Origin: Polaromonas sp.
GTDB lineage: Bacteria > Pseudomonadota > Gammaproteobacteria > Burkholderiales > Burkholderiaceae_C
Assembly (NCBI GenBank): GCA_031423655.1
Contig: JANPFZ010000274.1
Span: 1 to 52,265 of the forward strand
Reading direction: 5' to 3'
Length of the DNA stretch: 52,265 bases
The stretch's first letter is position 1; each line of letters starts with the position of its first letter. The position numbers and the translations under genes are program-made. Shown piece after piece: positions 18,822 to 48,314 of the stretch. The notes under the pieces are model-generated. The model saw only the letters and a list, made by a program, of their open reading frames with translations. It did not search any database and was not told the DNA's origin.

Positions 18822-19358
18822 ATGTTTAAATTTATATCAATTTTGGCAGGTTCCCTGCTTTTTGGGGGCATGACCGCGTCGCCTGCCATGGCTCAACAGA
18901 CTGGCAATCAGGCATCAAAGTCCGTTGATGCCACGCTCTCTGTGTTCCGGGTCGGTAAATCCGCAGAGGGAAAAGAAACTTTGCTGCCCGCCGACAAAGC
19001 CGCGCCTGGCGACACGCTGGAATACCAAACCGTTCATAAAAACAACGGCAAATCCACCATCAAGTCACTGGTGGCCACGCTGCCCTTGCCGGACGGCATC
19101 AGCTACCTGCCAGGCAGTGCCAAGCCCGCCAATGCCGAGGCCAGCGTAGACGGCAAAGTTTTTGCCGCCATTCCGCTCAAAACCATGGTCAAAAATGCCC
19201 AGGGCAAGCTTGAAGAGCGGCCGGTGCCTTATTCAGACTACCGCGCCCTGCGCTGGGCACTGGGCGAATTGCCTGCCAATGACCAGGCAACCGTCAGCGC
19301 GCGAGCCGTCGTTGACCCTGTTTCTGGTGCCGTCGCCACGCCGCAGAAGGCGAAGTAA
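18822..19358 (+). CDS. small secreted single DUF11-like domain, C-terminally truncated and lacking isopeptide residues (putative chaperone/cap, operon 1)
   Basis: Signal peptide (..SPAMA/Q), AAPGDTLEY..KNNG, TLPLP in place of TDxLP, RWALGEL. Alternative start GTG 18810. Confidence 0.8.
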   Translation: MFKFISILAGSLLFGGMTASPAMAQQTGNQASKSVDATLSVFRVGKSAEGKETLLPADKAAPGDTLEYQTVHKNNGKSTIKSLVATLPLPDGISYLPGSAKPANAEASVDGKVFAAIPLKTMVKNAQGKLEERPVPYSDYRALRWALGELPANDQATVSARAVVDPVSGAVATPQKAK

Positions 19359-19592
19359 CGTGCCCTTCCTCAACGTGCAAAACACCCGCACGCTTCGCAG
19401 CGCAGTCCGCGCTGCCCGCCAGGCCCTCCAACTTCACTCCATTGTTGCACTGGATCCCCCTGTGCAAAGGAGGGTACCCAATAGCTAACGCCTGCGGCGC
19501 GGCGAAGAGTTCGAGGAAAAGTTAGTGAACGTCCCGCTTTAGTTTTCAGTTTTATTTTTAGTAGAAATCAATTTAACGAGGAGATGTCAGAA

Positions 19593-22241
19593 ATGACTCA
19601 CACATCAAACCCATGGTCCAGTGCCGGAGCAAAGCTCCAGAGCATCTGGATCGCCTTCGCGGCTATCGCTGTTTTCTTCCTGCTCTTTGCCGGGTCCGGT
19701 CACGCGGCATCGCCGCTGGCCGGCACCAGCATCGGTAACCAGGCTTCGGCCACCTATGTTGACGGTTCAGCCGTCACGCGTTCGGTCTCGTCGAACGTGG
19801 TTTCAACCATCGTGCAACAAGTCGCTGCGCTGACCATCACGCAAAACTTGTCCAAAACGGCTGCGGCCGGCACTCAGGTCAGCTACCCGGTCACTTTGAC
19901 CAACACGGGTAACGGCTCAGACACTTTCGCGTTGAGTCAAGCCAATTCCGGCGGGTTTACCTTTACGTCGGTCAGCTTCTATGCTGACGCCAACGGCGAC
20001 GGTGTTGCGGACAACACAACGCTCATTACCAGCACGGGTAACCTGGCCCCCGGCACGGTTTTCCGCTTCGTTGCTGTGGGCAATGTGCCCACTACCGCGA
20101 CCACCGGGGCCATCGACACACTGGTGATCACGGCCACTTCCGGCTTCGCCCCCGCTGTTTTTGCGGCTGTAACGGACACAACCACTATCACCGCAAACGC
20201 CGACATCAACGCCACCAAGACGATGAGCGCGGTGTCGGGTGCGTCAGGTTCCGGTCCCTATACGGTCACTTTGAGCTACAACAACACCGGCAATATCGCG
20301 GCCAGCGCCGTCAAGCTGACCGACGCGCTGCCAGTCGGCATGACCTACGTCGCAGGCTCGGGTCGTTGGAGCGTGACTGGCGCCACCGCGCTGTCTGATG
20401 CAACAGGCGACCTCAATGGCACGGCTCCGACCATCGATTACAGCGTCACCGGCAACACCGTCACGGGCATCATCAGTAGCGTGGCTGCAGGCCAGGCGGG
20501 TACCCTGACATTCCAGGTCAGCATCAACGCTAATCTGGCGGCAGCGCCGTTGAACAACACAGCGACGTTTGCCTACAACGATGGCGCCGCCGCTATTCCG
20601 ACCGCCAATACCAACACGTTTGTGTTCAGTGTGAACCAGACCGCCAGCGTCACTGCAGCCGGTTCGACGGTTGCCAGCGCCGCCCAAGGCAGCACGGTGA
20701 CTTTCAGCAACGTGTTCACCAACACCGGCAACGGTATCGACAGCTTTGATGTGGCAATTTCCACGTCGTCCTTCCCGGCAGGCAGCTCGTTCGCCCTGTA
20801 CAAGGCTGACGGCGTCACGCCGCTGGTCGATACCAATGGCAACGGCATTCCCGATACCGGTCCAGTGACGGGCATCTTGACGGCCCCTAACAACACCTAC
20901 ACCGTGGTGTTGAAAGTGACCCTGCCAGCCGGTGTCACCGGTGGCCCTTACAGCGTATCCAAAACCGCCACGTCGAAGTTTGACCCGACCAAGATCGCAA
21001 CGGCCACCGACACCCTGACGACCATCGCCGTCAACACGGTGGACTTGACGAACAGCATCAACGCCAGCACGACTTCCAGCATTGCAAGTCTGGGTGTGGG
21101 CCCGTTCGCAGGAGCGGGCGCCGGAACCATCGTTACCAACGCCACCAATCCGGGCACCACGACGCGCTTCACGCTGAATGTTGTTAATGGATCAGGTTCC
21201 ACCGGAGACACCTTTAATCTGGCTGCCAGTACCGATTCGACTTTTGGCTCGTTGACCTTGCCATTTGGCTGGACCGTGGTTTTCCGTGACAGCGCCGGAA
21301 CGGTGGTCACCAACACCGGTATCGTCGCGCAGAATGCCACAGCGACAGTATTTGCTGACGTGACGGTTCCGGCCGGCCAAGCCGCCATTCCTGGTGGTCA
21401 GGTCATCACCTTCCGTGCGTTGTCGCCTTCGACGGGTTCCGCCGACAAGATCACGGATTCAGTGATCGTCAACACCATCCGAAGCGTGACCGTGACGCCA
21501 ACCAACGTGGGCCAAGTGGTTCCCGGTGGCAGCGTGATCTACACCCACACCATCACCAATGCGGGTAACGTTGCCGAGAATATTGATGCCACTCGTACCA
21601 TTGGTTTGTCCTTGAGCGAGACGCAAGCCGGCTTCACCTCCGTCGTGTACCTTGATGCGAACAACAACAATATCATCGACGCCACTGATCCGGTCATTAA
21701 TACGGTGGCCGATCTCGGCTCCATCGCGGCTGGTGCCAGCAAGCAGTTGTTGGTCAAAGTGACGGCGTCGTCCGGTGTTGGTATCGGCGTGGTGAACACC
21801 ACCACGCTGACGGCCACCACGGCGGGCTTGATCAATGGCGCGAATGCACCTGTCATCGTCAGCACAACGGACACCACTACCGTGATCTCCGGCAACATCG
21901 TGCTGCTCAAAGAGCAGGCGCTGGATGCAGCTTGCGATGGCACGCCGGATACCGCTTATTCGGTGGCAACCATCACGACAGGTGCAATTCCTAACGCGTG
22001 TATCCGCTATCGCGTGACTGCTACGAACAACGGCTCTGCCAATGTTGATAGCCTGGTTCTGAGCGACGCGACACCAGCGTCCACGACGTACATCGCTGGT
22101 ACCAACCCGGCCGTGACCGTGCCTGCTAGCACGATCACCGCGCCGACAACCGGCAACGCCGGCACTATCAGCGCCACCATCGGCACGCTGACGCCTTCCG
22201 CCTCGGTCGTTCTGACCTTCGGCGTGAAGATCAATCCGTAA
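19593..22241 (+). CDS. secreted multi-Ig/DUF11 protein with N-terminal donor strands and C-terminal acceptor domain (putative major shaft subunit, operon 1)
   Basis: GAGGAG SD 9 nt before ATG 19593 (ORF track start 19584). Signal peptide ..GHA/ASPLAGTSIGNQASATY; ends LTFGVKINP. Confidence 0.85.
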   Translation: MTHTSNPWSSAGAKLQSIWIAFAAIAVFFLLFAGSGHAASPLAGTSIGNQASATYVDGSAVTRSVSSNVVSTIVQQVAALTITQNLSKTAAAGTQVSYPVTLTNTGNGSDTFALSQANSGGFTFTSVSFYADANGDGVADNTTLITSTGNLAPGTVFRFVAVGNVPTTATTGAIDTLVITATSGFAPAVFAAVTDTTTITANADINATKTMSAVSGASGSGPYTVTLSYNNTGNIAASAVKLTDALPVGMTYVAGSGRWSVTGATALSDATGDLNGTAPTIDYSVTGNTVTGIISSVAAGQAGTLTFQVSINANLAAAPLNNTATFAYNDGAAAIPTANTNTFVFSVNQTASVTAAGSTVASAAQGSTVTFSNVFTNTGNGIDSFDVAISTSSFPAGSSFALYKADGVTPLVDTNGNGIPDTGPVTGILTAPNNTYTVVLKVTLPAGVTGGPYSVSKTATSKFDPTKIATATDTLTTIAVNTVDLTNSINASTTSSIASLGVGPFAGAGAGTIVTNATNPGTTTRFTLNVVNGSGSTGDTFNLAASTDSTFGSLTLPFGWTVVFRDSAGTVVTNTGIVAQNATATVFADVTVPAGQAAIPGGQVITFRALSPSTGSADKITDSVIVNTIRSVTVTPTNVGQVVPGGSVIYTHTITNAGNVAENIDATRTIGLSLSETQAGFTSVVYLDANNNNIIDATDPVINTVADLGSIAAGASKQLLVKVTASSGVGIGVVNTTTLTATTAGLINGANAPVIVSTTDTTTVISGNIVLLKEQALDAACDGTPDTAYSVATITTGAIPNACIRYRVTATNNGSANVDSLVLSDATPASTTYIAGTNPAVTVPASTITAPTTGNAGTISATIGTLTPSASVVLTFGVKINP

Positions 22242-22270
22242 GCCTTAACCAGACATTAGCTAAACGGTTC

Positions 22271-22335: not shown

Positions 22336-22400
22336 CCGCAAAACCAGCCCAAGCCTCTTCATCGCATGTTTCTCGATCAACCCTCTGTGAAAGTTAGCCG

Positions 22401-25400
22401 GTGCGCAGCCTAGTTGCACGCCTTATTAGTCTTTTTCTGGCGTCGCTGTTGCTCCTGGCATCGGCGTATGCCGCCACGCCGCTGGCGGGCCTGCGCATCA
22501 ACAACCAGGCCAGGGCAACCTTTTTTGACACCAACGCTGGCTTCTTCTCCACGCTGAATTCCAATACCGTCGTGGTCATCGTCCAGCCGGTGGAGGCGGT
22601 ACAAATTCGCCCGGCACAAACCTTTAATCGCTCACCTGGCTCTTTCGCTGTTTTCCCGTACCGCGTGACCAACAGCGGCAATGTAACTGCCACCTACGCG
22701 CTGACCTTCGGCAACACAACGGGCGACAACTTTGATCTGACGGGCCTGACGCTCTACCGCGACATCAACGGCAACGGCGCGGCCGATACCGGTGAGCCCG
22801 TGCTCGCCGCAGGCAGCACCATTACTCTGGCACCCGGCGAAAGTGCTGACGTGGTGTTGCAGGGGCAAATCGGTGCCGCCGTGTCACTCGGGCAAACCGC
22901 GCTGGTGAATTTCACCGCTACCAGTCAGCTGCAGGGCGCGACCCGCACCGTGACTGACACCGTGTTGACCGCTTTGGGCGCCAGCATGCGGCTGCAAAAG
23001 GGCGTTTCAAAGCTAAGCGCAGTCACCGCCGAGGTACTGACCTACACGCTGACCGTGCAGAACACCGGCAGTACCGCTGCCACGGGCGTGCCCGTGACGA
23101 TTGACGGCAGCCCTGTATCGCGGGTCGTGGTGCGTGATGCGATTCCCGCCAACACCGCGTTCGTGCGGTTGGGCCCGGCCGGCCCCGGAACACCGCTGTA
23201 CCACAGCGCTGGCACCGATGCCAATACCTACACGTCCACACCGCCCGCCAATCTGGCGCTGGTTGATGCCGTGGGTTTTGGCTTCGCCAAAATTGACCCC
23301 GGCCAGACCGTGGTGCGGACCTTCGACGTAAAAATCAATAGCAACGCGAGTGGCGATATTTTCAACACGGCAAAAGTCGGTTTTAACGACGGTTTGTCAG
23401 CGGTAGCAGCGTCAGTTGATTCGAACCAGACCACGACGACGGTTCCCAAGCTGCCGCCGACGATTGCCTATTTCCGGGACGCCGCTTTCGCGCAACCAAT
23501 CAACGTGGCCCACACGGAGCAGGTCGCTTATGTGCAGGCCAGCGCAGCGCAGTGCAATCTTGATGCGGCAAGGGTTGAGAGCTACACCGTCATCATCAAG
23601 TCGGCCATCACGGGCGACGTTGAGAGCTTCATCGCAACCGAGACGGGTCTGAATACAGGAACCTTCCGCATCGTGCCGAGTATTACCCTCACGAGCCAGG
23701 CTGGTCGTCCGGGTGACACCATACTCAACACCACGAAAAACGACACCCTTGGGGCCACCATGCTGGGTTGTGGTGGGAATGAGATCAATGTCAATTTGCT
23801 CATCGACCCCTATGGCGTGGTGTACGACGGTCGCAGCAATGCGCCGGTCAGCGGCGCCACCGTGGTCTTGTTCAACGTCAGCACCAATTCACCCGCAGTC
23901 GTTTTTCAGGCCGACGGTGTGACTCCCGCCCCCAATACGGTGGTGACCGGGTCCACCGGCCAGTATGAGTTTCCGACCGTCGCGCCGGACATGTATAAAT
24001 TGCTGGTAACCCCGCCAGGCGGCTACAGTTTTCCGTCGGTGCTGGCGCCGGCGCTTCTGGCTGCCGGTCGGGCTACCGATCCAAAAGGCTCGTATGGCGG
24101 AGAGTTCCTGGTGAGCCTGGCCACTGGCCCGGTGCGTATTGATGTGCCACTCGACGCCAGCAACCTGGGCGGCTTGTCCGTTGAAAAAACGGCGTCACGC
24201 TCAACCGTTGATCTGGGCGAGTTTGTTGACTACAGTGTCAAGATAAAAAACAGCAGCGGCCAACTGCTAGGACAGATACAGCTCGAAGATCACCTGCCAG
24301 CAGGTTTTGCCTATGTGCCGGGCAGCGCTCGCCTGAACGCAGGCACCGCGCGCCTTGATGGGTCAAAGGTGCCCGAGCCCGAGGGGGGCATCGGTCCCAA
24401 GCTCATTTTTAACGTGGGCTCCATTGCCGACAGCGTCGTCCTCACCATGAGTTACCGCGTTCGTGTGGGTCCGGGAGCCCTGCAAGGTGACGGTATTAAC
24501 CGTGCCCAGGCTTTTAGCGCGCGAGTCACTACGGGAATTGTGACCAAGGCCAGCAATATCGCAACCGCCACCGTGCAGGTGTTGCCGGGTGTTTTCAGTG
24601 ACCGGGGCTTCATCGTCGGCAAGGTGTTTGCTGACTGCAACCGCGACCGCATTCAAAACGCCGAAGAACGCGGCATTCCAGATGTGCGCCTGTACATGGA
24701 AGACGGCACCTTCGTGACCACCGACGCCGAGGGCAAATTCAGCCTCTACAACATTCGCCCCCAGACCCATGTGCTCAAGGTTGATGCCACCACCTTGCCC
24801 GAGGGTGCCCGACTGGCGGTGCTTGATGCGCGCAACGCGGGCGACGCGGCCACGCGTTTCGTCGATATGAAAAAAGGGCAGCTTTTAAAGGTGAACTTTG
24901 CTGTCGATGGTTGTGCCGTGGCCGTGCAGGAGGCCATTGACCTGCGGCTGCAGCGCGCCCGCGCCGGCTCTGAAGCCGAATTCGCCGTCAAGGCCCGCAT
25001 CACGGCCGATGGCGTCGCGCCACTGGTTGACGTCAAAGGCTTGCCCGCCAGCGGCCTTGTCGGCGTGAAAACGCCACTCATCACCAGCCCCGGTGTGAAG
25101 CCTGCTATTGCCTCGCCGGCAAAGCCTGGCACCACTTCAGAACGCCTCGACCTCGATAAATTGATGCCGACGTTTGACGCCAGGCTGCAGATTGTCAGTC
25201 CCACCGACAAACAGACCTTTGGTGTTGCGCAGACAGATGTTCTCGTCAAAGGCGCAGCCGGCAGCGACTTCCGCCTGCGCGTCAATGGCGTTGAAATATC
25301 GCAAAAACGCGTGGGCCGTAAAAGTGTTCTGGATTCCAGCGGCGTCCAGGCCTGGGAATACATCGGCGTTGATCTGAACCCTGGGCTGAACAACATTGAG

Positions 25401-28247
25401 CTGGAGCAAGTCGATTCATTTGGCAATGTGCGCGGTAAAACCGCCGTTCAGGTCAGCGCTGCCGGCAAGTTCTCCAAGCTAAGCGTGCAGGTGCCGCCCA
25501 CCGGCGTTCCTGCCGACGGCCGTAGCATGACCGAAGTGACCCTGCTTTTGACTGATGCCGAAGGCCTGCCGGTCAAGGGTCGCATTCCCGTGACGCTGGA
25601 AACCTCCATCGGCATCTGGCAGGCTGAAGACCTCGACAAAAAAGAGCCGGGCCTGCAGCTTTTCGCGGAAGACGGCGAAGCCAGGCTCATGCTGCTGTCG
25701 CCGCTCGACCCGGGCGAGGCAGAAATTCGCGCGGCATCGGGGGGCATCAAGTCCTATGCAATTGTGAAGTTCTTGCCCGAGCTGCGCCCCCTGATCGCCG
25801 CTGGCGTGATTGAAGGTGCAATTAATTTCAGAAGCCTCAACGCCCAGGCGTTGCAGCCGACGCGGTCGCAAGACGGGTTTGAGCAAGAGTTGCGGCATTT
25901 TTCACGCACCAGTGCCGACGGCAAACGCGACGCCGGCGCACGGGCTGCGTTGTTCCTAAAAGGCAAAGTCAAAGGCGACTATCTGTTAACGCTGGCCTAT
26001 GACTCCGACAAGGCATCCAAAGAACGTCTGTTCCGCGACATTCAGCCCGACGAGTTCTACCCCGTTTATGGTGACGATTCGGTCAAGGGATTTGACGCGC
26101 AATCTACCGGCCTGTTCTATGTGCGGGTAGACAAAGGCAGCTCGTATGCGCTGTATGGTGACTACACCACTCAAAGCCAGACGGCGTTTTCAAGCGGGCC
26201 GACCCGTCAGCTGAGCCAGTACAGCCGCAGCCTGAATGGCGCGCGGACCCATCTTGAGGGCGAGCAAGGTAGCCTGAATGCGTTCGCGGCGCGGACCAGC
26301 TCGCGCTCTTTCACTGAAGAATTTGCAGCGCGCGGCGTGTCGGGCTACTACCCGCTGGGCCGTACCAATATTGTTCCGAACAGTGAAAAAGTCGAGATTC
26401 TTACGCGCGACCGCAACCAGCCCACCATCATTTTGAACGCTGTGCCGCTCGCGCGTTTCACTGACTACGAAATCGAGTCGCTGAGTGGCCGCCTTCTATT
26501 TAGAAATCCTATTTCGACGCTTGACCAGAACTTCAACCAGATCTCTATTCGCGTCACCTACGAGTTTGAGCAGGGTGGTCCCCAGTTCTGGGTTTACGGC
26601 GTCGATGGACAAGTCAAGCTGGGCGATCGGGTTGAAGTGGGCGGCACCCATGTGCGCGATCAAAACCCGTTTGACAACTTCTCCATGCAAGGTGCCAATG
26701 TCGTCGTCAAGCTAGCCGAAAAAACCACCCTTAATGCCGAAGTCGCGCAAACCAGCAATGTCATCTCCGGCTCTGGCAAGGGCGCGCGGGTAGAGCTGAA
26801 GCACGAAGGCGAGCAGTTGCAGGCGCAGGCGTTTGCAGGCAAAACCACGGCGGGTTTCGACAACCCCAGCGCTTTGCTCAGCAAGGGGCGGGCAGAAGCC
26901 GGCGCCAAGGCCAAACTGAAGATTGACGACCTGACCAACATCAAGGTCGAGGCTATCCGCAGCGAAGACGCCATCACCAAAGGTGCGCGTGATGGCGCCC
27001 TGGTGGTCGTCGAGCGCAGCCTGGGTGAGAACCTTAACGGCGAAATCGGTCTGCGCTATTTCAAGGAAACAGCCATCCCGGCAGACCTCAGCACCTTGGG
27101 CGTGACGCCCAATGAAGGCACGGCGGCCCGCTTCAGGCTGTCGGGGCCGGTGCCCCATGTCTCAGGGCTCACCGTATTTGGCGAGTACGAGCAAGATATT
27201 GCCAACAGCGAAAAAAAAATGGCCGCCATCGGCGGTGAATACGGCTTGTATGAACGCAGCAAGCTTTACTTGCGCCATGAGCTGATATCCAGCCTGGGCA
27301 ACCGCTACACGCTCAACAGCACGCAGCAGCAAAACGCCACCGTGTTGGGTATCGATGCCGGCTACCTTGACGAAGGACGGGTCTTTAGCGAATACCGCCT
27401 GCGCGACGCCCTGACCGGACGCGAAGCCGAGGCCGCAATGGGTCTGCGTAACTTCTGGACGGTAGCCGAGGGCCTGCGCATCCAGGCTGGCCTGGAGCAG
27501 ATTCGCACCCTGAACGGCGTTGACCACCGAAGCGTTGCCGTAACAGGCGGTGTTGAGTACACCGCCAATCCGGACTGGAAAGTCAGCGCCCGTCTGGAAT
27601 ACCGCACCGACGTGTCGTCCAAACAGTTGCTAAGTACTGTCGGCCTGGCCTACAAAGTTTCCAGCGAATGGACCTTCCTGGGGCGCAATGCGCTGCAGAT
27701 CCAACAGGCCAAAACGGCCACCGGCGGCCGCAAGACGCAAGATCGTCTTCAGCTTGGCATGGCTTACCGCGACAGTGCCGTCAATCAATGGGACGCCCTG
27801 GGCCGCTATGAGCTAAAGCACGAAAGTGACGACATTGCGGTGGTACAAACCAAGCGGACGGCGCACATTGTATCGACCCACCTGAGCTACCAGCCGCAGG
27901 CTGATTTGGCGTTCTCGGGCCGCTACGCCGGTAAATATGTGCTCGAAGATTCCCTCGGCATCAGCAGCCGCTACACCGCGCATCTGCTGTCTGCGCGGGC
28001 CGACTACGACATTGCCCGTGACTGGACGATTGGAGTCAATACCGGCGTTTTGTTCAGCGCCGGCATGCGCAGCCGTCAGGGGGCATTGGGCGCGGAGCTG
28101 GGCCGCGTACTGACCAAAAACCTGTGGCTGTCCGTCGGCTACAACCGTTTTGGCTTCCGTGACGACGACCTCGCCAGCGAGGGCTACACCAGCAAAGGCG
28201 TGTTCCTCCGCCTGCGCTACAAGTTTGACGAGAATTTGCTGAATTGA
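22401..28247 (+). CDS. 1948-aa protein: donor strands, Ig/DUF11/SdrD-B-like stalk, large C-terminal outer-membrane beta-barrel (putative anchor/secretion pore, operon 1)
   Basis: Signal peptide AYA/ATPLAGLRINNQARATF; two complete DUF11 domains; roughly 800 aa of amphipathic beta-strands ending GVFLRLRYKF. Confidence 0.82.
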   Translation: MRSLVARLISLFLASLLLLASAYAATPLAGLRINNQARATFFDTNAGFFSTLNSNTVVVIVQPVEAVQIRPAQTFNRSPGSFAVFPYRVTNSGNVTATYALTFGNTTGDNFDLTGLTLYRDINGNGAADTGEPVLAAGSTITLAPGESADVVLQGQIGAAVSLGQTALVNFTATSQLQGATRTVTDTVLTALGASMRLQKGVSKLSAVTAEVLTYTLTVQNTGSTAATGVPVTIDGSPVSRVVVRDAIPANTAFVRLGPAGPGTPLYHSAGTDANTYTSTPPANLALVDAVGFGFAKIDPGQTVVRTFDVKINSNASGDIFNTAKVGFNDGLSAVAASVDSNQTTTTVPKLPPTIAYFRDAAFAQPINVAHTEQVAYVQASAAQCNLDAARVESYTVIIKSAITGDVESFIATETGLNTGTFRIVPSITLTSQAGRPGDTILNTTKNDTLGATMLGCGGNEINVNLLIDPYGVVYDGRSNAPVSGATVVLFNVSTNSPAVVFQADGVTPAPNTVVTGSTGQYEFPTVAPDMYKLLVTPPGGYSFPSVLAPALLAAGRATDPKGSYGGEFLVSLATGPVRIDVPLDASNLGGLSVEKTASRSTVDLGEFVDYSVKIKNSSGQLLGQIQLEDHLPAGFAYVPGSARLNAGTARLDGSKVPEPEGGIGPKLIFNVGSIADSVVLTMSYRVRVGPGALQGDGINRAQAFSARVTTGIVTKASNIATATVQVLPGVFSDRGFIVGKVFADCNRDRIQNAEERGIPDVRLYMEDGTFVTTDAEGKFSLYNIRPQTHVLKVDATTLPEGARLAVLDARNAGDAATRFVDMKKGQLLKVNFAVDGCAVAVQEAIDLRLQRARAGSEAEFAVKARITADGVAPLVDVKGLPASGLVGVKTPLITSPGVKPAIASPAKPGTTSERLDLDKLMPTFDARLQIVSPTDKQTFGVAQTDVLVKGAAGSDFRLRVNGVEISQKRVGRKSVLDSSGVQAWEYIGVDLNPGLNNIELEQVDSFGNVRGKTAVQVSAAGKFSKLSVQVPPTGVPADGRSMTEVTLLLTDAEGLPVKGRIPVTLETSIGIWQAEDLDKKEPGLQLFAEDGEARLMLLSPLDPGEAEIRAASGGIKSYAIVKFLPELRPLIAAGVIEGAINFRSLNAQALQPTRSQDGFEQELRHFSRTSADGKRDAGARAALFLKGKVKGDYLLTLAYDSDKASKERLFRDIQPDEFYPVYGDDSVKGFDAQSTGLFYVRVDKGSSYALYGDYTTQSQTAFSSGPTRQLSQYSRSLNGARTHLEGEQGSLNAFAARTSSRSFTEEFAARGVSGYYPLGRTNIVPNSEKVEILTRDRNQPTIILNAVPLARFTDYEIESLSGRLLFRNPISTLDQNFNQISIRVTYEFEQGGPQFWVYGVDGQVKLGDRVEVGGTHVRDQNPFDNFSMQGANVVVKLAEKTTLNAEVAQTSNVISGSGKGARVELKHEGEQLQAQAFAGKTTAGFDNPSALLSKGRAEAGAKAKLKIDDLTNIKVEAIRSEDAITKGARDGALVVVERSLGENLNGEIGLRYFKETAIPADLSTLGVTPNEGTAARFRLSGPVPHVSGLTVFGEYEQDIANSEKKMAAIGGEYGLYERSKLYLRHELISSLGNRYTLNSTQQQNATVLGIDAGYLDEGRVFSEYRLRDALTGREAEAAMGLRNFWTVAEGLRIQAGLEQIRTLNGVDHRSVAVTGGVEYTANPDWKVSARLEYRTDVSSKQLLSTVGLAYKVSSEWTFLGRNALQIQQAKTATGGRKTQDRLQLGMAYRDSAVNQWDALGRYELKHESDDIAVVQTKRTAHIVSTHLSYQPQADLAFSGRYAGKYVLEDSLGISSRYTAHLLSARADYDIARDWTIGVNTGVLFSAGMRSRQGALGAELGRVLTKNLWLSVGYNRFGFRDDDLASEGYTSKGVFLRLRYKFDENLLN

Positions 28248-36069: not shown

Positions 36070-36606
36070 ATGCGCAACACCCTGATCAAACTTATCTTCG
36101 CCAGCCTTGCCGGTCTGGCCGTAACAGTCACCCCGCTGGTACATGCGCAAGCCCAGACCCCGGCCCAGGCCCAGGCCCGCCCTGCGGCCGGCAATATCGA
36201 ATTCAAAAACGTCGCCGAAGTCGAAGTCGAAACCCAAGCCGCTGACGGCAAGGTTGAAAAGAAACGCGTGCCCGTGCAAAAAGCCATTCCCGGCACGGTG
36301 GTGTTCTACACCTCGACCTTTAAAAACACCGGCGCCAAAGCGGCCGGCAACATCAACGTCACCAACCCGGTCCCCGCCAACACCACCCTGGTAGCCGCCA
36401 GCGCCTACGGCGAAGGCATGGACATCAGCTACTCGGCCGATGGTGGCAAAACCTGGGCTGCAGCCGACAAGGTGAAGGTCAAGGGCGCCGACGGCAAAGA
36501 GCGCCCAGCCGCCATTGGCGAGTTCACCCATGTCAAGTGGACCCTGCGCGGTGAACTGGCTGCCGGCAAGCAGGCAGAAGCGGGCTTTCGCGTCGTCATC
36601 AATTAA
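36070..36606 (+). CDS. small secreted truncated DUF11-like domain lacking the catalytic Asp (putative chaperone/cap, operon 2)
   Basis: GGAG SD; signal peptide ..VHA/Q; AIPGTVVFY..KNTG, TNPVP, KWTLRGEL; ends FRVVIN. Paralogue of 18822-19358. Confidence 0.85.
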   Translation: MRNTLIKLIFASLAGLAVTVTPLVHAQAQTPAQAQARPAAGNIEFKNVAEVEVETQAADGKVEKKRVPVQKAIPGTVVFYTSTFKNTGAKAAGNINVTNPVPANTTLVAASAYGEGMDISYSADGGKTWAAADKVKVKGADGKERPAAIGEFTHVKWTLRGELAAGKQAEAGFRVVIN

Positions 36607-41200: not shown

Positions 41201-43752
41201 GCTTCAAGAGCCTGAGCGGCAACATGGAAAACCTGTCAGCTGGCAGTGCCGATGACCAGCTTTTCGACCAGAACCGGGTGGCTTTTTACGCCAAAGGCCA
41301 GGTAAAAGGCGAATACCTGCTTACCCTGGCCTACGACAGCGCCAAAGAGAAAAACTCTGCCGGCAGCAAGTTGCTCAATCCTTCGTTGAGTCAGCCTTTG
41401 GTTCAGCCGCTGAACCAGGCGATTGACCCGAACCAGTTTTACACGTTGTACGGTGACGCGACCCAGCCGCAGTTTGACGCCGCCAGTGCGCGCAAGCTGT
41501 ACGTGAAGATTGAAAAATCGCAGTTTTACGCGATGTTCGGCGACTACGAAACCGGCTTGTCGGTGACCGAGCTGGGCCGTTACAGCCGCACGCTGAACGG
41601 CTTCAAGTCTGAATTCAAGGGCGAGCGTGCTGCCTACAACGCGTTTGCCAGCCAGACCGCGCAGAGCTTTCGCAAAGACGAAATTCAGGGCGACGGCACC
41701 TCAGGCCTTTACCGTCTGGCCAGCCGGGACATTTTGATCAATTCCGACAAGGTGCGCGTCGAAGTGCGCGACCGTTTCCGGCCCGAAATCATTGTCAGCA
41801 CCCGGGTCTACACACGCTACCTTGACTACCAGATCGACTACGCCCTGGGCACGCTGTTTTTCCGCGAACCGATTGCTGCGCGCGATAGTGATTTCAATCC
41901 CGCTTTCATCGTCGTCGAATACGAGTCCAACAGCCAGCTTGATGCGAAGCTGACCTACGGCGGCCGGGTCGCCGTCAAGATCGGGGACAACCCCGGCGAA
42001 AAAAGCGAGGTCGGCATCACCCGCATCCACGAAGGCAATGTCGGCCGCGAAGCGACGTTGACGGCGGCCGACGCCACCATTCGTTTCGGCGACAAGTCGA
42101 AGCTGCATGCGGAAGTCGCGTCCAGCGAGCGCGTGTCTGGCTTGGGCAAAGAAGACGGCAAGGCCTACGTGCTGGAGGCCACCCATATTGATGAGAATCT
42201 GAGCGCGCGCGCTTACGCCCGCCAGCAAGATGCTGGTTTTGGCCTCGGGCAGCAAGCAGGCTCTGAAGCCGGAACCCGAAAAATCGGGGCTGACGCCCGC
42301 TACGTGCTGTCGGAAACGACGCAACTGCAGGCAGAAGCCTACCGTCAGGAAAACCAGCTGACCAAGGCCAGGCGCGACGTGCTTGAAGGCCGCGGCCAGT
42401 GGAAAAACGAAGGCCTCACCACCCAGGCCGGCTTGCGCGCAGCACAAGAATCCGATGGCAAGGGCAAAGAGGCCAGTGTGCGCCAGCTGATTGGCGGCGT
42501 CGCTTACGAAGTGCCAGACACGGCCCTCACCCTGCGGACGACCACCGAGCTTGACGTGGGCAGCCAGGGCGAAAGCGTCGCCTTTCCGAACCGGGTGACT
42601 CTGGGCGTTGATTACAAACTGAACCCGCAGCTGACCTTGTTCGCGCAGCAGGAGTTCGCCCGCAGCGGCGAGCTGAAGGCCGACACCACCCGCGTCGGTC
42701 TGCGCATGCAGCCATGGACGGGCGGCGAGGTCTTGAGTTCACTGGGCAACCAGACGGGCACCGATGGTGGACGTGTTTACGGCAACCTCGGTCTGGTGCA
42801 GAAGTGGAAAATCAGCGAGCAGTGGGCTGCTGACTTCGGCATAGACCGCTCGCAGACTTTCAGCGGCGCCTCTACCAGTCCCTTCACTTCGGCGCAAGCG
42901 CCGACTTCGGGCACCCTGAATTCTTCAGGCACGGGCAGCACGGCAATCGCCTCAGGCTTCACCAGTACCACGCCCGGCATTTCGACCACGATCGTGACCG
43001 GCGACTACACCGCGCTGTTCGTCGGTGGCGCCTACAAAAACCGCGACTGGAGCGGCAATGCGCGTCTTGAGTGGCGCGGCAGCGATACCGACACCAAGAT
43101 CAATCTGTTGCTGGGCGCGCAGCGCAACCTCGACGAAGGCCGCAGCGCGGCCGCAGCCGTGCTTTACAACAAATCCAGCGGCAGCCTGAACGGCAGCCGG
43201 CTTGATGCGCGCCTGAGCTATGCGCACCGGCCGATCAATGGCACCTTGATCTGGCTCGACCGGCTGCAGTATGTTCATGAGTCGCTGCAAGACCCGCTCG
43301 GGCCTCTGCTGACCCGCAAGCTGATCAACAACTTCAATGCCAACTGGATGCCGGCCCGGCAAACGCAAATCGCGATGCAGTACGGCGCCAAGTATGTGCG
43401 CGACAGTATTGACGGCAGCGGCTACAAAGGCTTCACGCACCTGATCGGCCTGGAGGCGCGGCAAGACATCGGCGAGCGTTTCGATATTGGCCTGCACGGC
43501 GGCATGCTGCACTCGCTGCAAAATAGCGCGCGCGACTACCAGCTCGGTGTATCAGTCGGTTTCAAGCTGGCAGAAAATTCGTGGTTGAGCGTGGGCTACA
43601 ACCAGCGCGGCTTTATTGATCGCGACTTCACCGGCAGCGAATACCGCGCCGAGGGCCTGTACCTGAACCTGCGCGTCAAGTTTGACCAGGACACGTTCAA
43701 TCTAAATGACCGCAGCGGGGGCCAGCTGGCGCCACTGTCGGGCAAGCCGTAG
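38212..43752 (+). CDS. large donor-strand + Ig stalk + outer-membrane beta-barrel protein (putative anchor/secretion pore, operon 2)
   Basis: ATG 38212 preferred over TTG 38116; ..LALA/ATPPNTAITNTASATY. Shares KG.VKG.YLLTLAYDS.K, FY..YGD and LSVGYN motifs with 22401-28247; last strand LYLNLRVKF. Confidence 0.82.
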   Translation: MGTLRTHAKACLALGLSLGLGLSVTLALAATPPNTAITNTASATYTIAGTPVTVTGSATVTTVGSTPATIAFLQYVPSSVGLPAGMASLQNVPVSQCNAGSGFLPLPAPVVPGGPALTVPGSVLLAPGSLYASGDPVFVRVIDYDQNINPLVAETVVVSVSSNGIDTESLRLTETGPSTGVFIGYVPSKSSPAQSGNCMLNVGGNQRLLASYIDQSQNSVAVTAAALVDPLGVVFDSATGLPVNGAQVTLINVATGLPASVLGNDGVSSYPASVTSGRSATDAGGTVYTFAPGRYQFPRIAPGSYRLAIVPPANYAFASLVLTPALQALPGAPFFIVSGSRGEAFSVVPGPPIEIDVPLDPSLAGGVQITKSAGKAVVGIGEFLPYTISITNTGKSPINALKISDRLPVGFRYQAGSARLEKAGLADPQVGGDGRGLEFGIGTLPGSGTVTLRYVVAVLAGANVGQSENTAQVSAGATSNVARASVMVREDLNRSRAILMGRVTQVESCEKTEAVEPLGLKGVRVMLQDGTYIVTDNEGRWHADNIRPGTHVVQLDEPSLPRGYVLENCDPTSRTGGRNFSQFVNVRGGSLWRADFRLKPVPICMGEQLQLSGQTVRVRLAAPVASESVVATVMLPPNAKVVPGSVKLDGQVFAQAEASDGVLVARLGAQLVNWNRLLSFELESAPGADMTLSVQIQPNGQPMQRLSQLRLKAPAFETDQCAPIALLPRAAVAAVALDPSAPAPLIGRSAGQLQLVEVLPYDDKWIAAAAPGAEWLHPQTAFVPALPVIKVAVKHEARHRVELLVNGIAVNPMRYEGVTMNPAGTLAVSNWRAVELRDGANLMEVTVRDALGQVVLQESRSIHYAVGPASASFDAARSQLVADGRTAPSLAVRMLDKEGKPVRRGAGGEFQIASPYLSKDQADAIQREPLTGRLGGRSRYQVGDDGVALIELQPTTQAGEVVLNFDFGNNRTQEIRAWLKPDLREWVLVGFAEGSKGFKSLSGNMENLSAGSADDQLFDQNRVAFYAKGQVKGEYLLTLAYDSAKEKNSAGSKLLNPSLSQPLVQPLNQAIDPNQFYTLYGDATQPQFDAASARKLYVKIEKSQFYAMFGDYETGLSVTELGRYSRTLNGFKSEFKGERAAYNAFASQTAQSFRKDEIQGDGTSGLYRLASRDILINSDKVRVEVRDRFRPEIIVSTRVYTRYLDYQIDYALGTLFFREPIAARDSDFNPAFIVVEYESNSQLDAKLTYGGRVAVKIGDNPGEKSEVGITRIHEGNVGREATLTAADATIRFGDKSKLHAEVASSERVSGLGKEDGKAYVLEATHIDENLSARAYARQQDAGFGLGQQAGSEAGTRKIGADARYVLSETTQLQAEAYRQENQLTKARRDVLEGRGQWKNEGLTTQAGLRAAQESDGKGKEASVRQLIGGVAYEVPDTALTLRTTTELDVGSQGESVAFPNRVTLGVDYKLNPQLTLFAQQEFARSGELKADTTRVGLRMQPWTGGEVLSSLGNQTGTDGGRVYGNLGLVQKWKISEQWAADFGIDRSQTFSGASTSPFTSAQAPTSGTLNSSGTGSTAIASGFTSTTPGISTTIVTGDYTALFVGGAYKNRDWSGNARLEWRGSDTDTKINLLLGAQRNLDEGRSAAAAVLYNKSSGSLNGSRLDARLSYAHRPINGTLIWLDRLQYVHESLQDPLGPLLTRKLINNFNANWMPARQTQIAMQYGAKYVRDSIDGSGYKGFTHLIGLEARQDIGERFDIGLHGGMLHSLQNSARDYQLGVSVGFKLAENSWLSVGYNQRGFIDRDFTGSEYRAEGLYLNLRVKFDQDTFNLNDRSGGQLAPLSGKP

Positions 43753-43808
43753 TCCTGACATCAGTGCCGCACACCCAGCCAGCACTCCCAACCTGCAAAT
43801 CAAGCGAA

Positions 43809-46800
43809 ATGAACGCCCTTAAACACCTCATGCAGCGCAGTGCGGCGGCCTTGCCGGCGCTGGCTATGGCACTGCTTCTTCTGGTGCAGGTACAACAGGC
43901 ACACGCCGAAACCGTCCATGGCATTACAGCCAATGGGATTTTCAGCGTCGACAGCGTCAGCGGTGGCCCTGCTACCCAGCTGGTCACATTCACCTCGCCG
44001 CTTGCAAACGGCGTTACTTTGGCCACCCGCCCCTCCGACGGGATGTTGTTTTATCTCGACAGCACCGGCGCCAACCCCAACCTCTGGCGTTGGGACCCGT
44101 CAACTCCCAGCGTGATGCCGGTGCTGGTCGGCACGCCGGGTGCCACCACCACGGGCGTGATTCGCCTCGGCTTTGACGTGTTCGGCAGTCTGTACGCCAT
44201 GAACTCCGGTGTGGGCACGTCGGTCTGGACGCTTGATCCGAATACTGGCGGAATTTTGACCGTCACGCCAGCCAGCGGCTTCAATGGCGGCAACATCACC
44301 GGCGGTGGCGACATCTGTCTGCACCCCACAACCGGCGTGCTCTACATGATCTCGCAGCAGGATCTGTACACGCTTACACCGGCAGGCGTGGTGACCCGCC
44401 TCGGCACCATCAGTGGAATGGGCGCCATTTCAACCGGCTGTGCCTTTGACCGCAACGGCAAGCTGGTAGTGTCCCCAGGTGCGCAGCTCTACACCGTCAA
44501 TATCGGCACGCTGGTGGCTACGGCCATGCCCAATGCAACGGGCGTGGCGGCTTTCGGCGACCTGGCCACCAATCCTGATTCAAACGTCAGAGCTGCATTG
44601 CGGGTTTCCAAGACAGCCAGCAACCTGACGCCTGGCACCACCGTCACTTTTACTGTGACAGTAACCAACGACGGCCCCAGCAGAGCAACCGATGTTCGGG
44701 TGCTCGACTTGCTTCCTGCCGGCCTGACATTGGTGTCTTCGAGCGCAACCCAGGGAAGTTATTCGGCAACCGCAGTGGTCGGTCCGCCGGCTTATCCGGC
44801 AGGCACGTGGCGCGTCGGCACCCTGACCAATGGTGCCGTGGCCACGCTGACGATCAATGCGAATGTGACCGGCTCCACGCCCATCATCAACTACGCACAG
44901 GTCTCATACGCGGATCAGTACGACCCTAATTCGACACGCGGAAGCACCACGCCGTTTGGCGCAACAGAAAACGACCAGGCCAGCGTTACCATCACGCCCA
45001 GCCCCGACTTGCGCACTGTCAAGACGGCGACCAGCTCATTCGCGGTCGGCACCAGCGCGACCTATTCCATCACGGTTAACAACACGCTGGGCAGCCTGAG
45101 CACTGGTGCGAATGCCTACACGGTCACCGATGTGCTGCCGGCGGGCCTGACCTTTGTTTCGGCTGTCGGCACCGGATGGACTTGCGCGGCCAATGCACCG
45201 GCTGCGGGCGACAACGTTGCAGGAGGGTCACGCATGGTCTGCACCAGCAGTGCCACCATGGCCGCCGGCGCCAGCAATGGCAACGCCATCGTGCTGACGG
45301 TATTGGCTGGCGCTGCAGCCGCGCCTAGCGTGAGCAATACCGCCACAGTGTCCGGCGGTGGCGAACCGGCCAGCAACAATGGCAACAACAGCAGCACGAT
45401 TTCGACACCCGTTTGCACAGCGGGTGGTTGCCCGGATCTGCGCGTCAACAAAACCACAGCGGCAAGTCCTTTTGTCGTGGGTACGGCAGCGAGCTACACC
45501 CTGAGCGTCAGCAACATCGGCGGGCTGACGACCGGCCTCAGCAACTACGTTATTTCGGACACGCTGCCGGCCGGCCTGACGTTAACAACCGCCATTGGCG
45601 GGGCGGGCTGGACAATTGGCGCGGGCTGGACCTGCACGGTCGGTGCGGCCGGCGGCAATCAGGTGACTTGCAACAGCAGCACCAGCATTGCAGCTGGCGG
45701 AACTTCCAGCACCATCGTGTTTCCTGTAACGGTCGCCAACAATGCTGCGCCTGGTGTCTCCAATACGGCCAGCGTCACGGGCGGTGGCGAGCCGGCGGCT
45801 GTCACTGGCAACAACAGCACCACGTTGGCGACGCCAGTCACCGCGTTCGATCTGACCGTAACGAAATCCAAGACGGCTGCCGGCAATTTTGTGCTGGGGG
45901 ACAGCACGGCGACCTACACCCTTACCGCCAGCAACATTGGTGGGGTGGCCACGACCGGAACGATCACCGTCACCGACACCTTGCCCGCCGGGCTGACGCT
46001 GACCACGGCATCGGGTGGCACGGGCTGGACGATAGGTGCCAACTGGACTTGCACGGGTGCCGTCGGCGGGACCGTCGTGAGCTGCACGCGCACTGTCGCC
46101 ATCGCCGCTGCAACCTCCAATGTAGCCGTCGTCATCTTCCCGGTCACGGTCGCCGCTGCAGCGGCACCCAGTGTCACCAACACGGCGTCGATCAGCAACC
46201 CGAATGAGTCGACCAACCTGCTGGGCAATAACTCGTCAACGCTCATCACACCCGTCGACGCGCCCGACCTCGTGGTCACCAAATCACATAACGGCAACTT
46301 CACCGTCGGCGTCAATGGCATCTACACGCTGACGGTTTCCAACCTCGGTGCGCTCGCTACCAGCGCCGCCAATGTGGTCGTGACCGACACCTTGCCTGCC
46401 GGATTGACCTTTGTGTCTGGCACGGGCACCAACTGGACGTGTACAGCCGCTGGGCAAGTGGTGACCTGCGTCCGTCCGCTGGCCAACGCCGTCGCTGCGA
46501 ACGCCTCGGCACCGCCCATCACGCTGACGGTATCGGTCGGTGCCGCTGCAGCCACAGCCTCTCCTGTCACCAACAACGTCAGTGTTGCGGGTGGTAACGA
46601 ACCTGCGGGCAACAACGGCAACAACACCGCTGCCGACATTACCTTCGTTTATTACTCGCCCATCATCACCAAGACATTTTCGCCCGCCACCGTGGTTGCG
46701 GGCATACCCTCCACGCTGACCCTGACCATCAGCAACCCGGCGGGCAACCCGGTGTCACTCGCCGGTCTGGCGGTGGTTGACCCCTTTCCTGCCGGCATGT

Positions 46801-48314
46801 CGGTGGCAAGCACCCCGAGCTTCAGCAACACCTGCGGCGGCACGGCATCGCCGGGCAGCGCGCAAGGCGACACGCTGATCTCATTGACTGGCGGCGCTAC
46901 GGGCGCGGCGGGTAGCAGCTGCGCAATTCAGGTCAATGTCATCAGCACCACGATTGGTGCAAACGTCAACACGACAGGGCAAGTCAGCTCGACCAACAGC
47001 GGCACCGGAGCCGCCGCCTCGGCGACGCTGACGGTCACCGCACCCGGTTCGCCCACCCTGACCATGGTCAGTTCCCCTGACCCGGTGGGCGTGAACATGC
47101 CGGTCACGCTGACCTACACCATCAATAACAACAACGCGGCTAATACCAATCTGGGTTTTACCCACAACTTCCCCATCATCGGTGGTGCGCAGATGGTGTG
47201 GCAGAGCACCGGGTCAACCACCTGTACCGCTGGCGCGGCCACGGTCACCAATCCGGCAGGTGCTGCGCTGGTGGCAGGCACCAGCACGGGTATTCGTCTG
47301 AATGGCTATGGCCCAGCGGCCAATGCGGTATGCACCATCGTTGTTACGGCTACGGTCGGTGCGGCTGGCACAGTCACGACGGTAAATGGCACACCCGGCA
47401 TCAGCGGCCTGACGGGTACGGCATTGTTGGTGTCTGCCGTCAACGACACCTTCAACGTGCGCGCCGTTACGCTGACCAAAGCGTTTACGCCAACCACGGT
47501 TGCGGTCAACGCCGCCTCGCTGTTGACTTTTTCACTTACCAATGGTGTCGGCAACCCTGCTCAAGGCGGCACGACCCCCATCAACAACCTGCTGGCATTC
47601 ACCGAAACGCTGCCTGCCGGGCTTGTGGTGGCTACTGCGCCCGCAGGCACGCAGTGCAACGGCACGGTGGCGGCGACTGTCGGCACGGGCGTCATCACGT
47701 TTAGCGGTGGCACCTTGTCCCTGGGGCAGGCCAGCTGTTCGATTCTGGTCAACGTCATGTCGGCAACCGCAGGGACCTACAACAACCTGCCAGCCAACGT
47801 AACCGGGTTTCCCACCAACATCATCAACAGTGCGAGCGCCACGCTGACAGTCGGCTCGCCCAGCCTGGTGTTCCTGAAAACCGTCGCGGTCCTGAACGAT
47901 CCGGTCAACGGAACGACCAACCCCAAGAACATTCCCGGCGCCGAGGTGCTCTACACCCTGCGCGTGACAAATACTGGCCCTGGCGCGGTAGACCTCGACA
48001 CAACAGTGGTGAGTGACCCGATTTCGCTCAACACTGATCTGTTTGTGGGTGACCTGAGCGGCGTTAGCACCGGTCCGATCCAGTTTGTTCAGGGCGCGCC
48101 CACCAGCGCGCTGAGCTGGACTTACACGGCGCTCAACAGCGTGACCGACGACGTCGGCTTTTACAGCGACAATGCTTGCGTCACTTTAATGGTGCCAACG
48201 GCGCCCTACGATACAACGGTGCGGTGCATACGCCTGAACCCCAAGGGAATCATGGCGGGTACGGGTGGTGGCAACCCGTCCTTTGAATTGAGATTCAAGG
48301 TTCGCGTCAAGTAG
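43809..48314 (+). CDS. adhesin: N-terminal beta-propeller, about 8 DUF11-type domains, C-terminal acceptor domain (putative tip adhesin, operon 2)
   Basis: Signal peptide ..QAHA/E; blade-like repeats (FDVFGSLY, LDPNTG, FDRNGKL, GDLA); DL.V.K repeats; ends LRFKVRVK. Confidence 0.85.
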   Translation: MNALKHLMQRSAAALPALAMALLLLVQVQQAHAETVHGITANGIFSVDSVSGGPATQLVTFTSPLANGVTLATRPSDGMLFYLDSTGANPNLWRWDPSTPSVMPVLVGTPGATTTGVIRLGFDVFGSLYAMNSGVGTSVWTLDPNTGGILTVTPASGFNGGNITGGGDICLHPTTGVLYMISQQDLYTLTPAGVVTRLGTISGMGAISTGCAFDRNGKLVVSPGAQLYTVNIGTLVATAMPNATGVAAFGDLATNPDSNVRAALRVSKTASNLTPGTTVTFTVTVTNDGPSRATDVRVLDLLPAGLTLVSSSATQGSYSATAVVGPPAYPAGTWRVGTLTNGAVATLTINANVTGSTPIINYAQVSYADQYDPNSTRGSTTPFGATENDQASVTITPSPDLRTVKTATSSFAVGTSATYSITVNNTLGSLSTGANAYTVTDVLPAGLTFVSAVGTGWTCAANAPAAGDNVAGGSRMVCTSSATMAAGASNGNAIVLTVLAGAAAAPSVSNTATVSGGGEPASNNGNNSSTISTPVCTAGGCPDLRVNKTTAASPFVVGTAASYTLSVSNIGGLTTGLSNYVISDTLPAGLTLTTAIGGAGWTIGAGWTCTVGAAGGNQVTCNSSTSIAAGGTSSTIVFPVTVANNAAPGVSNTASVTGGGEPAAVTGNNSTTLATPVTAFDLTVTKSKTAAGNFVLGDSTATYTLTASNIGGVATTGTITVTDTLPAGLTLTTASGGTGWTIGANWTCTGAVGGTVVSCTRTVAIAAATSNVAVVIFPVTVAAAAAPSVTNTASISNPNESTNLLGNNSSTLITPVDAPDLVVTKSHNGNFTVGVNGIYTLTVSNLGALATSAANVVVTDTLPAGLTFVSGTGTNWTCTAAGQVVTCVRPLANAVAANASAPPITLTVSVGAAAATASPVTNNVSVAGGNEPAGNNGNNTAADITFVYYSPIITKTFSPATVVAGIPSTLTLTISNPAGNPVSLAGLAVVDPFPAGMSVASTPSFSNTCGGTASPGSAQGDTLISLTGGATGAAGSSCAIQVNVISTTIGANVNTTGQVSSTNSGTGAAASATLTVTAPGSPTLTMVSSPDPVGVNMPVTLTYTINNNNAANTNLGFTHNFPIIGGAQMVWQSTGSTTCTAGAATVTNPAGAALVAGTSTGIRLNGYGPAANAVCTIVVTATVGAAGTVTTVNGTPGISGLTGTALLVSAVNDTFNVRAVTLTKAFTPTTVAVNAASLLTFSLTNGVGNPAQGGTTPINNLLAFTETLPAGLVVATAPAGTQCNGTVAATVGTGVITFSGGTLSLGQASCSILVNVMSATAGTYNNLPANVTGFPTNIINSASATLTVGSPSLVFLKTVAVLNDPVNGTTNPKNIPGAEVLYTLRVTNTGPGAVDLDTTVVSDPISLNTDLFVGDLSGVSTGPIQFVQGAPTSALSWTYTALNSVTDDVGFYSDNACVTLMVPTAPYDTTVRCIRLNPKGIMAGTGGGNPSFELRFKVRVK

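Follow-up and report, generated by a model that had tools for sequence, protein, structure and literature searches.

A split CLIPPER (DUF11) domain in two operons of Polaromonas sp. and the donor-strand pilus that it may build

The contig JANPFZ010000274.1 of Polaromonas sp. (GenBank assembly GCA_031423655.1) carries nine genes on the + strand, at 18822-48314, in which CLIPPER/DUF11 domains recur. The genes, termed A to I in their order, lie in two groups, A-B-C-D (18822-34003) and E-F-G-H-I (~34975-48314), and most of the encoded proteins begin or end with a part of such a domain. The question raised by this locus is whether a domain divided in this manner is completed between proteins, which would join them into a fibre. 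The window, i.e. the whole stretch of 52,265 nucleotides that was analysed, is an entire contig of a genome of 3.56 Mb that is 97% complete. The split feature is real and conserved. It is considered fairly probable that the product of the locus is a pilus of two-membrane bacteria that is joined by donor strands and locked by isopeptide bonds, and that has a barrel of its own as well as a bond-dead holder.

Sockets and plugs of the split domain

CLIPPER (DUF11; PF01345, TIGR01451) is a domain found as stalk repeats in adhesins. In the main text of PMC12617251 it is described as a solved domain (9IFR) with a Lys-Asn isopeptide bond near an Asp. The TIGR01451 model scores above its cut-off in eight of the nine proteins and DUF11 is detected by Pfam in seven; G is without a TIGR01451 match itself, yet its C-terminal domain aligns with those of the other proteins. 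No CLIPPER/DUF11-type domains were found on other contigs of the genome. A profile of 142 positions was built from the 12 complete internal domains of the window, across which the Lys, the Asn, the Asp and a late Asn are invariant. These complete repeats match 9IFR (E 6.7e-9), and the alignment brings Lys-715 and Asn-806 into register. The Asp aligned to 9IFR is at chain position 44, residue 749 by offset, and PMC12617251 names Asp-748.

The term ‘socket’ is used here for a C-terminal CLIPPER/DUF11 domain without its last two strands, and ‘plug’ for an N-terminal piece of two strands. Sockets are present in B (21891..22241; Lys codon 21909, Asp codon 22065), D (33695-34003; 33713 and 33815), E (35683-36003; 35701 and 35824), G (37631-38107; 37649 and 37781) and I (47859-48314; 47877 and 48015). 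All five keep the Lys and the Asp, and the Asn strand is absent. The sockets of B, D and E match the profile to position 104 and then stop, the profile Asn being at position 114. The matches of G and I end early, at 79 and 51, because of long insertions, and both sockets align to the same last strand. In these terminal copies the three reactive residues do not lie within one contiguous domain.

The mature N-termini of B (plug 19707..19820, Asn codon 19737), C (22473-22589, 22503), E (35068-35181, 35098), G (36938-37078, 36968) and H (38296-38403, 38326) share an invariant Ile-x-Asn-x-Ala. Four of these plugs match profile positions 108-140 weakly (2.6-13.3 bits), and that of G matches elsewhere (2.3 bits). 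An initial annotation of the locus had held that the N-termini are exactly the piece missing from the sockets. As the scores are weak, this identity rests on the Asn-x-Ala-x-x-x-Tyr/Phe pattern, its position and its conservation. The codons that the annotation listed for five Lys, five Asp and five Asn were all verified in their contexts, and the five endings before the stop codons read as it quoted them. An incomplete immunoglobulin (Ig) fold and an N-terminal extension with the missing part are thus both present by sequence, with two strands instead of one.

Profiles built from other genomes only were run against the 13,633 open reading frames (ORFs) of the genome. The seven C-terminal domains of the contig, which include those of A and F, rank 1-7 with the socket profile, and four of the five N-termini rank 1-4 with the plug profile (18-48 bits; background at most 7.3). 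The plug of C falls outside that top list and scores 10 bits in a scan restricted to N-termini. The N-termini of D and I score 0.1 and 0.2 bits with the plug profile, i.e. they carry no plug. Both candidate adhesins had been described as acceptors only, one with some ambiguity; this holds for I, and at 0.1 bits the ambiguous D is also socket-only. D was rejected as a plug carrier on that score, and the N-termini of four operon-1-type tips of relatives are unrelated.

The ordered distribution first described, with socket-only tips (D, I), shafts with plug and socket (B, E, G) and plug-only barrel proteins (C, H), was found to be the same in 79 loci of relatives. The notion of a single system fared less well: the genes form two operons parted by a gap of ~1 kb (34004 to ~34975), and the small sockets A and F had not been listed. 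A Sec-type signal peptide is apparent at the start of all nine proteins, as judged from the sequence by eye.

Conservation among relatives

Among 120 close relatives of G, Asn42 is present in 119 and Lys269 and Asp313 in all 120, and every sequence ends at the same column. At E 1e-30 or better there are 1,029 G representatives. A sample of 150, less than 50% identical to each other and 35-65% identical to G, included seven partial sequences that were left out of the triad count. All three residues are kept in 138 of the 143 full-length members. Lys269 is kept in 149 of the 150, and none of the 150 ends more than two residues away from the common end column.

The 79 loci were seeded on G. In these, 132 of 144 shaft ORFs contain both halves; the shaft sockets have the Lys in 135 of 136 cases and Asp or Glu in all 136, and the shaft plugs have the Asn in 131 of 139. 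None of the 43 other socket ORFs has a plug and 42 keep the Lys and the acid; four of the 43 are frameshifted shaft halves, which were excluded from the comparison of pairing. The barrel class (n=71) took in 5′ halves that were assigned partly because they were without a socket. A plug was scored in 39 of its members, each with the Asn. The 32 without a scored plug comprise 10 frameshifted 3′ halves with the plug upstream, 20 with a plug-like Asn peptide recognised by eye and two that are unreadable. The 47 intact barrel proteins end in the barrel domain and not in a socket.

A second set (L080-L110) was seeded on the small gene and 20 regions were fetched. L099 was dropped, as it holds a large protein and not the small gene, and L106 was without a hit; the true small genes number 19. 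In this set the Lys and Asp are present in 54/54 sockets of large proteins. The distribution of donors and acceptors proposed at the outset is kept in the first survey, and the second agrees. Gene decay or chance could also produce truncations, and frameshifts are seen in some loci, but the same end point in 150/150 representatives, the intact Lys and Asp of the second set and the genome-wide profile control make this explanation extremely improbable.

Tips without a plug and barrels without a socket cannot complete themselves, so the reactive residues kept in them would imply pairing between proteins. By judgement and not by computation, such pairing is regarded as very likely. Given pairing, covalent locking is in turn likely, and a repeated shaft only slightly less so.

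The operon 1 order (small gene, long shaft, barrel and, where the region reaches it, tip) is found in 8/8 relative loci of this type, as is the layout of B (plug, spacers, CLIPPER, socket). Titles of records with the cluster name Beta-, Gamma-, Delta-, Zeta- and Alphaproteobacteria, Nitrospirota, Myxococcota, Eisenbacteria and Zixiibacteriota. Operon 2 is present in Polaromonas and Methylophilus records, and the closest named relatives of the window proteins are from Comamonadaceae and Polaromonas. Three different shaft genes occur in L091 (9208-14895), L097 (8058-12572) and L019, and L091 has two small genes.

The proposed fibre and its alternatives

In the proposed mechanism, the N-terminal plug of one predicted Sec-exported subunit would complete the C-terminal socket of the next, and the plug Asn would bond to the socket Lys with the socket Asp as catalyst. 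A socket-only adhesin at the tip would take the plug of a shaft subunit, and each shaft socket would take the next plug. Growth would occur at the base, like that of chaperone-usher pili, until a plug-only barrel protein terminates the chain and anchors the fibre at the outer membrane. The large barrel is a probable pore for export and assembly, and the dead sockets of A and F would probably hold plugs until assembly.

Operon 1 would give the order D-(B)n-C. The shaft protein B (19593..22241) consists of a plug, spacer Ig-like domains, one complete CLIPPER (20199-20639) and the C-terminal socket. The barrel protein C (22401..28247) has a plug, a spacer domain, two complete CLIPPERs, SdrD-B/carboxypeptidase-like and Big_1-like domains and a predicted C-terminal beta-barrel from ~25785. 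The tip adhesin candidate D (28253..34003) contains an N-terminal domain without assignment, about nine complete CLIPPER repeats, SdrD-B-like domains, a spacer and the socket, with no plug. The plugs of B and C are 50% identical, which suggests the order D-(B)n-C and a key separate from that of operon 2. Six highly similar CLIPPER repeats stand in a row in D at 29990-32600.

Operon 2 would give the order I-(G)n-E-H. E (34975..36003, start codon uncertain), with plug, spacer and socket, is the candidate base adapter, and G (36845..38107), with an Ig-like spacer at 37079-37630 between its plug and socket, is the candidate main shaft subunit. The barrel protein H (38215..43752) has a plug, one complete CLIPPER, Ig-like domains and a predicted beta-barrel at 41155-43752. 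The tip adhesin candidate I (43809..48314) has an N-terminal domain that weakly matches DUF4394, five complete CLIPPERs, three DUF7933 domains and the socket, with no plug. This order is proposed because the sockets of G and I share a motif (46% identity over 58 residues) that is absent from the socket of E, and, among the plugs, the similarity of E to G (0.41-0.43) exceeds that of either to H (0.33-0.34). The job of each fibre is likely to be adhesion, since the tip domains are variable. Tip length ranges from ~940 to 2,685 codons among relatives, and the N-terminal domain also varies freely.

The initial annotation had named C and H as barrel proteins, which are 27-35% identical to each other, and modelling agrees with an outer-membrane-type barrel. 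An AlphaFold model of the last 865 residues of H (predicted local distance difference test, pLDDT, 75.9) shows an unbroken series of 31 long strands that starts at residue 264. Ahead of these lie seven or eight further strands, where confidence is lower, and the model also has an inserted beta domain. From this model the H barrel is estimated at ~36-38 strands. An usher barrel has 24 strands. The top Foldseek matches of the model are the outer-membrane barrels LptD, SlpA, MtrB and SprA, with TM below 0.3; no usher is among the matches listed, all of which have TM <0.3 of the query, and absence from this list does not amount to exclusion. Neither C nor H has a Pfam match to the usher family (PF00577), which does detect the genome's usher on contig C109. 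The barrel has no Pfam match, its profile gave no credible match among the sequences of solved structures, and the barrel clusters in the protein atlas have either no name or the generic ‘outer membrane protein’.

The barrels could instead be autotransporter-like, each showing its own N-terminal stalk, while the other subunits exit elsewhere and attach outside the cell. The autotransporter layout is an N-terminal passenger followed by a C-terminal barrel, C and H have such an Ig-like passenger, and Sec-type signal peptides are the only export signal visible. The barrel proteins have no Pfam autotransporter match, however, and the barrel of type Va autotransporters has 12 strands, whereas at least 31 are predicted here. 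These and the inserted beta domain far exceed the need for threading one chain, and each operon has a barrel of its own. An autotransporter-like role is thus rated as highly improbable.

The small proteins A (18822..19358, operon 1) and F (36070..36606, operon 2) each consist of a predicted signal peptide and a single socket domain, and are 33% identical to each other. The position of the Asp is occupied by Leu in A, Asn in F and Val or Leu in relatives of A. With the register fixed by the first two residues of the core, the Lys is absent from both proteins, and F has Asn in its place. In this register the Lys is found in 0/69 members of the small-protein family, and an acid is at the catalytic position in 6/69. 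As read from these residues, most small proteins are bond-dead and a few are ambiguous. The gene is present in 74 of the 79 loci, the remaining five being cut by contig ends, and 15 of the 19 true small genes of the second set adjoin shafts and a barrel. Taken as a marker, it has matches in 25 of 301 genomes of the phylum; this figure counts the present genome, and a small number of the hits are larger proteins. The clusters of F in the protein atlas are named ‘DUF11’. On balance A and F would bind plugs reversibly in the periplasm, so that these neither lock too early nor close on their own chain; a role as end cap is the alternative. A PapD chaperone donates a strand to a groove, and A and F would be its mirror image, a putative socket for the plug. 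Four dead-socket genes (L081, L082, L084 and L096) sit alone among housekeeping genes, and the genome of L084 has a full cluster elsewhere (L083).

Several observations weigh against the proposed fibre. The loci are kin, and the counts overstate their independence. Eight of the 139 shaft plugs are without the Asn, and Ser replaces it in two barrels (L092, 12960-18584; L093, 1565-7213), where the base link would consequently be non-covalent. A profile-profile comparison of the plug with the missing strands gave a weak score, a probability of 3% only, with the Asn in register. The tip socket is nearer to that of G than to that of E in 22 of 30 loci, a pairing code of modest strength. When the small proteins are read in a second possible register, the Lys is present in 17 of the 69, and five of these have the Asp as well; the four lone small genes belong here too. 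In the monomer model of G the pLDDT is 90-96 over residues 1-50, and self-closure would look alike. No plug-socket pair is among the top 120 couplings of a coevolution analysis, in which the predicted block ranks 102 of 2,784. In codon use, neither G nor B stands out as a highly expressed major subunit.

This last result, of little information in itself, is in line with a fixed short stalk, C-B-D or H-E-G-I, made from one copy of each protein. Such a stalk would be a fibrillar adhesin assembled from parts and locked, with no repeated shaft. The tips and B already hold many stalk domains, and the three or four different shaft genes of L019, L091 and L097 would suit an ordered chain with distinct keys. 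Against a fixed stalk, the sockets of G and I share their motif, and any plug suited to I should then suit G too, allowing repetition; similarly, the plug of B is 50% identical to that of C, so the socket of B should accept either. The fixed stalk is held to be unlikely, and the repeated shaft is preferred.

The fibre could also be held by donor strands without covalent bonds, the Lys, Asp and Asn being kept for folding only. According to the main text of PMC12617251, the bond is absent in some DUF11 domains, and in the portion of PMC11580942 available, Asn35Ala oligomers of the Clostridium protein BsaA withstand unheated sodium dodecyl sulfate. Ser or other residues also replace the plug Asn in some relatives of the present proteins. 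The Lys, however, is at a position buried in the solved relative and is retained by nearly every G representative, and both it and the Asp have been lost from the small sockets encoded in these operons. Retention in large sockets and loss in small ones fit chemistry better than folding. A wholly non-covalent fibre is accordingly thought improbable beside the isopeptide-locked one.

Another possibility is that the shafts are circularly permuted monomers, each plug filling the socket of its own chain, so that pairing between proteins would be confined to barrel and tip. The model of G (pLDDT 92) comprises the plug at residues 1-45, the Ig-like spacer at 46-231 and the socket at 232-389, and the high confidence of the plug in this single chain is in favour of self-closure. 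Ig-like domains have their ends at opposite poles, so that a side-by-side ring is conceivable. On the other side, the model shows an interrupted plug strand (8-11, 14-15 and 18-19), and the stretch between plug and socket is a single spacer in G and E and five domains in B. Neither the conserved small protein nor the two-shaft layout is explained by self-closure.

The coevolution alignment held 346 sequences (effective number 243) and cannot separate pairing within a chain from pairing between chains. The plug couples most strongly with the spacer domain next to it (Ala36-Ser124 ranks 2-3). This suggests that the two meet end to end in a rigid junction directed away from the socket, and it speaks against self-closure. 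The block of plug and Asp strand has a mean z of 0.17, compared with a maximum of 0.11 in 28 shuffles, and its top-30 count (2) is not above the shuffles; an earlier run over all columns gave 5/30. On the best anti-diagonal (sum 354) Asn42 faces residue 312, by a thin margin of 0.76 vs 0.74. Self-closure of the shafts is considered about as improbable as a non-covalent fibre, and completion between subunits is retained. In the spacer after the plug (G, 36938-37630 with the plug; also B, C, D and E) an Asn-x-Gly-Asn loop is conserved and a number of Asp residues are invariant; these covary with the first plug residues. The junction of plug and spacer is possibly stiffened by metal, to go by these residues.

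Searches of solved structures by sequence with G, B and the G-family profile gave no credible match. Fold searches of the G model returned generic Ig-like structures only (Foldseek TM at most 0.35; best Z ~8, background), and no pilus structure was prominent. The matches of the G socket include CnaA-type domains of ACE, PitA and Mfa5 at background level (Z 7.2-7.4). The match of the G spacer to WxLIP (9I1Y; Z 7.8, root-mean-square deviation 3.9, 119 aligned) is also within background.

Relation to known systems and genomic setting

The chaperone-usher pili (type 1 and P), as covered in the available part of PMC13721041, have a similar layout of tip adhesin, shaft and base, in which an N-terminal extension completes the Ig fold of the neighbour, with an outer-membrane barrel and a small periplasmic helper in the operon. 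The barrel here differs in being predicted to exceed 24 strands and in itself carrying a plug. The donated piece is of two strands, the linkage is predicted to be covalent, and the helper is a socket and not a strand donor. Pfam scans bore out the earlier statement that the locus has no sortase, usher or PapD. A PapD-type chaperone (PF00345) is absent from the operons, where A and F are DUF11-like, and present only on C109; sortase (PF04203) has no match in the 97%-complete genome, and the C-termini of the proteins end in a beta strand or a barrel. The chaperone-usher locus of the genome itself is on contig C109 at 10883-13731. Its usher and PapD were rejected as partners, as both are on this other contig.

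The closest chemistry is that of BsaA of Clostridium perfringens, a member of the TasA family. The accessible text of PMC11580942 reports an Asn35-Lys74 bond with Glu56, and mutants that lose oligomers. As here, an N-terminal donor Asn, an acceptor Lys and an acid catalyst are used, and the polymer forms by exchange and locking without sortase. BsaA differs in having a TasA-like single domain, a SipW operon, one membrane, a Glu catalyst in place of Asp and neither barrel nor dead socket. No Pfam match to the TasA family or SipW was obtained in the nine proteins or in the 15 flanking proteins scanned. In the archaeal threads of Saci_0406 (PMC9715654, available text), head-to-tail donor-strand filaments also have intermolecular isopeptide bonds. 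These differ in being archaeal and in that Asn57 is bonded to the N-terminal amine of subunit n+2, and Saci_0406 is not among the matches listed for G or the G-family profile in sequence and fold searches of solved structures.

Other filaments are less alike. The Elr/WxL pilus of Enterococcus (10.64898/2026.10.17.759780) and the Pam pili of candidate phyla radiation (CPR) bacteria (PMC13278184) share donor strands, chaperones of their own and variable tips. Both are built from other domains, Elr is anchored by sortase, and their abstracts mention neither a split CLIPPER nor a large barrel. The grappling-hook filament GhlA of Litorilinea (10.1101/2025.08.19.671072) is also a surface filament of DUF11 domains; it is trimeric, formed by one chain of 6,596 residues with 49 domains, and the words ‘donor’ and ‘isopeptide’ are absent from the text available. 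Tafi (PMC11821415, available text) differs in its domains. The word ‘donor’ is likewise absent from the main text of the CLIPPER paper (PMC12617251). DUF11 or CLIPPER does not occur in the first 300,000 of the 525,587 characters of a 2026 review of bacterial surfaces (PMC13721041).

No description of a split-DUF11 fibre was found in a full-text search of the literature that covered main texts and few subscription papers. The initial claim that no such system had been described stands to this extent; as the texts available for BsaA and CLIPPER make clear, an exchange locked by an Asn-Lys bond and the DUF11 fold were already known. The layout is like that of a chaperone-usher pilus and the chemistry like that of BsaA, yet the system is a member of neither class, because the locus has no usher or PapD and no TasA or SipW. 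It is likely a donor-strand pilus in kind, in a family of its own. The fullest form of the proposal is a pilus class of two-membrane bacteria that is widespread and not yet described, with an assembly pathway of its own. It would be a natural tag/catcher polymer with a self-forming isopeptide at each junction between the tip and the barrel, export through a barrel family of ~36-38 strands that has no solved relative, a dead socket that sets the timing as chaperone of the plug, and a separate key for each operon; this is offered tentatively, at somewhat less than an even chance.

Two gaps may be regulatory regions, namely 34004-34975, with A+T-rich stretches, before operon 2, and the 240 bases at 36607-36844 before G. 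A promoter and terminator scan gave nothing useful, and none in these two gaps. Upstream on the - strand (3197-16198) there are genes for two Phenol_Hydrox subunits, an FAD/2Fe-2S reductase, a small ORF (7814-8176), an amidohydrolase, an FeS-assembly protein, a porin, a chaperonin, a WD40 protein, CobW and a zinc alcohol dehydrogenase, and this set resembles a soluble di-iron monooxygenase cluster of the propane-monooxygenase type. A Phospholipase-D-family gene and a gene for a soluble ATP-binding cassette (ABC) protein flank operon 2 on the - strand (48494-52220), with no apparent tie to the operons. The ABC protein (50433-52220) was rejected as a type I exporter, as it is of the soluble ABC_tran_Xtn/CTD type.

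The bond chemistry itself is already known from Clostridium BsaA and the archaeal threads. If the proposal is true, two-membrane bacteria would have a covalently linked pilus that needs neither sortase nor usher, with a barrel family and a chaperone logic that have no counterpart in the literature searched. A gene cluster annotated as ‘hypothetical’ or ‘DUF11 protein’ would gain a function. The family would also supply many natural, and possibly orthogonal, CnaA-type tag/catcher pairs for protein engineering.

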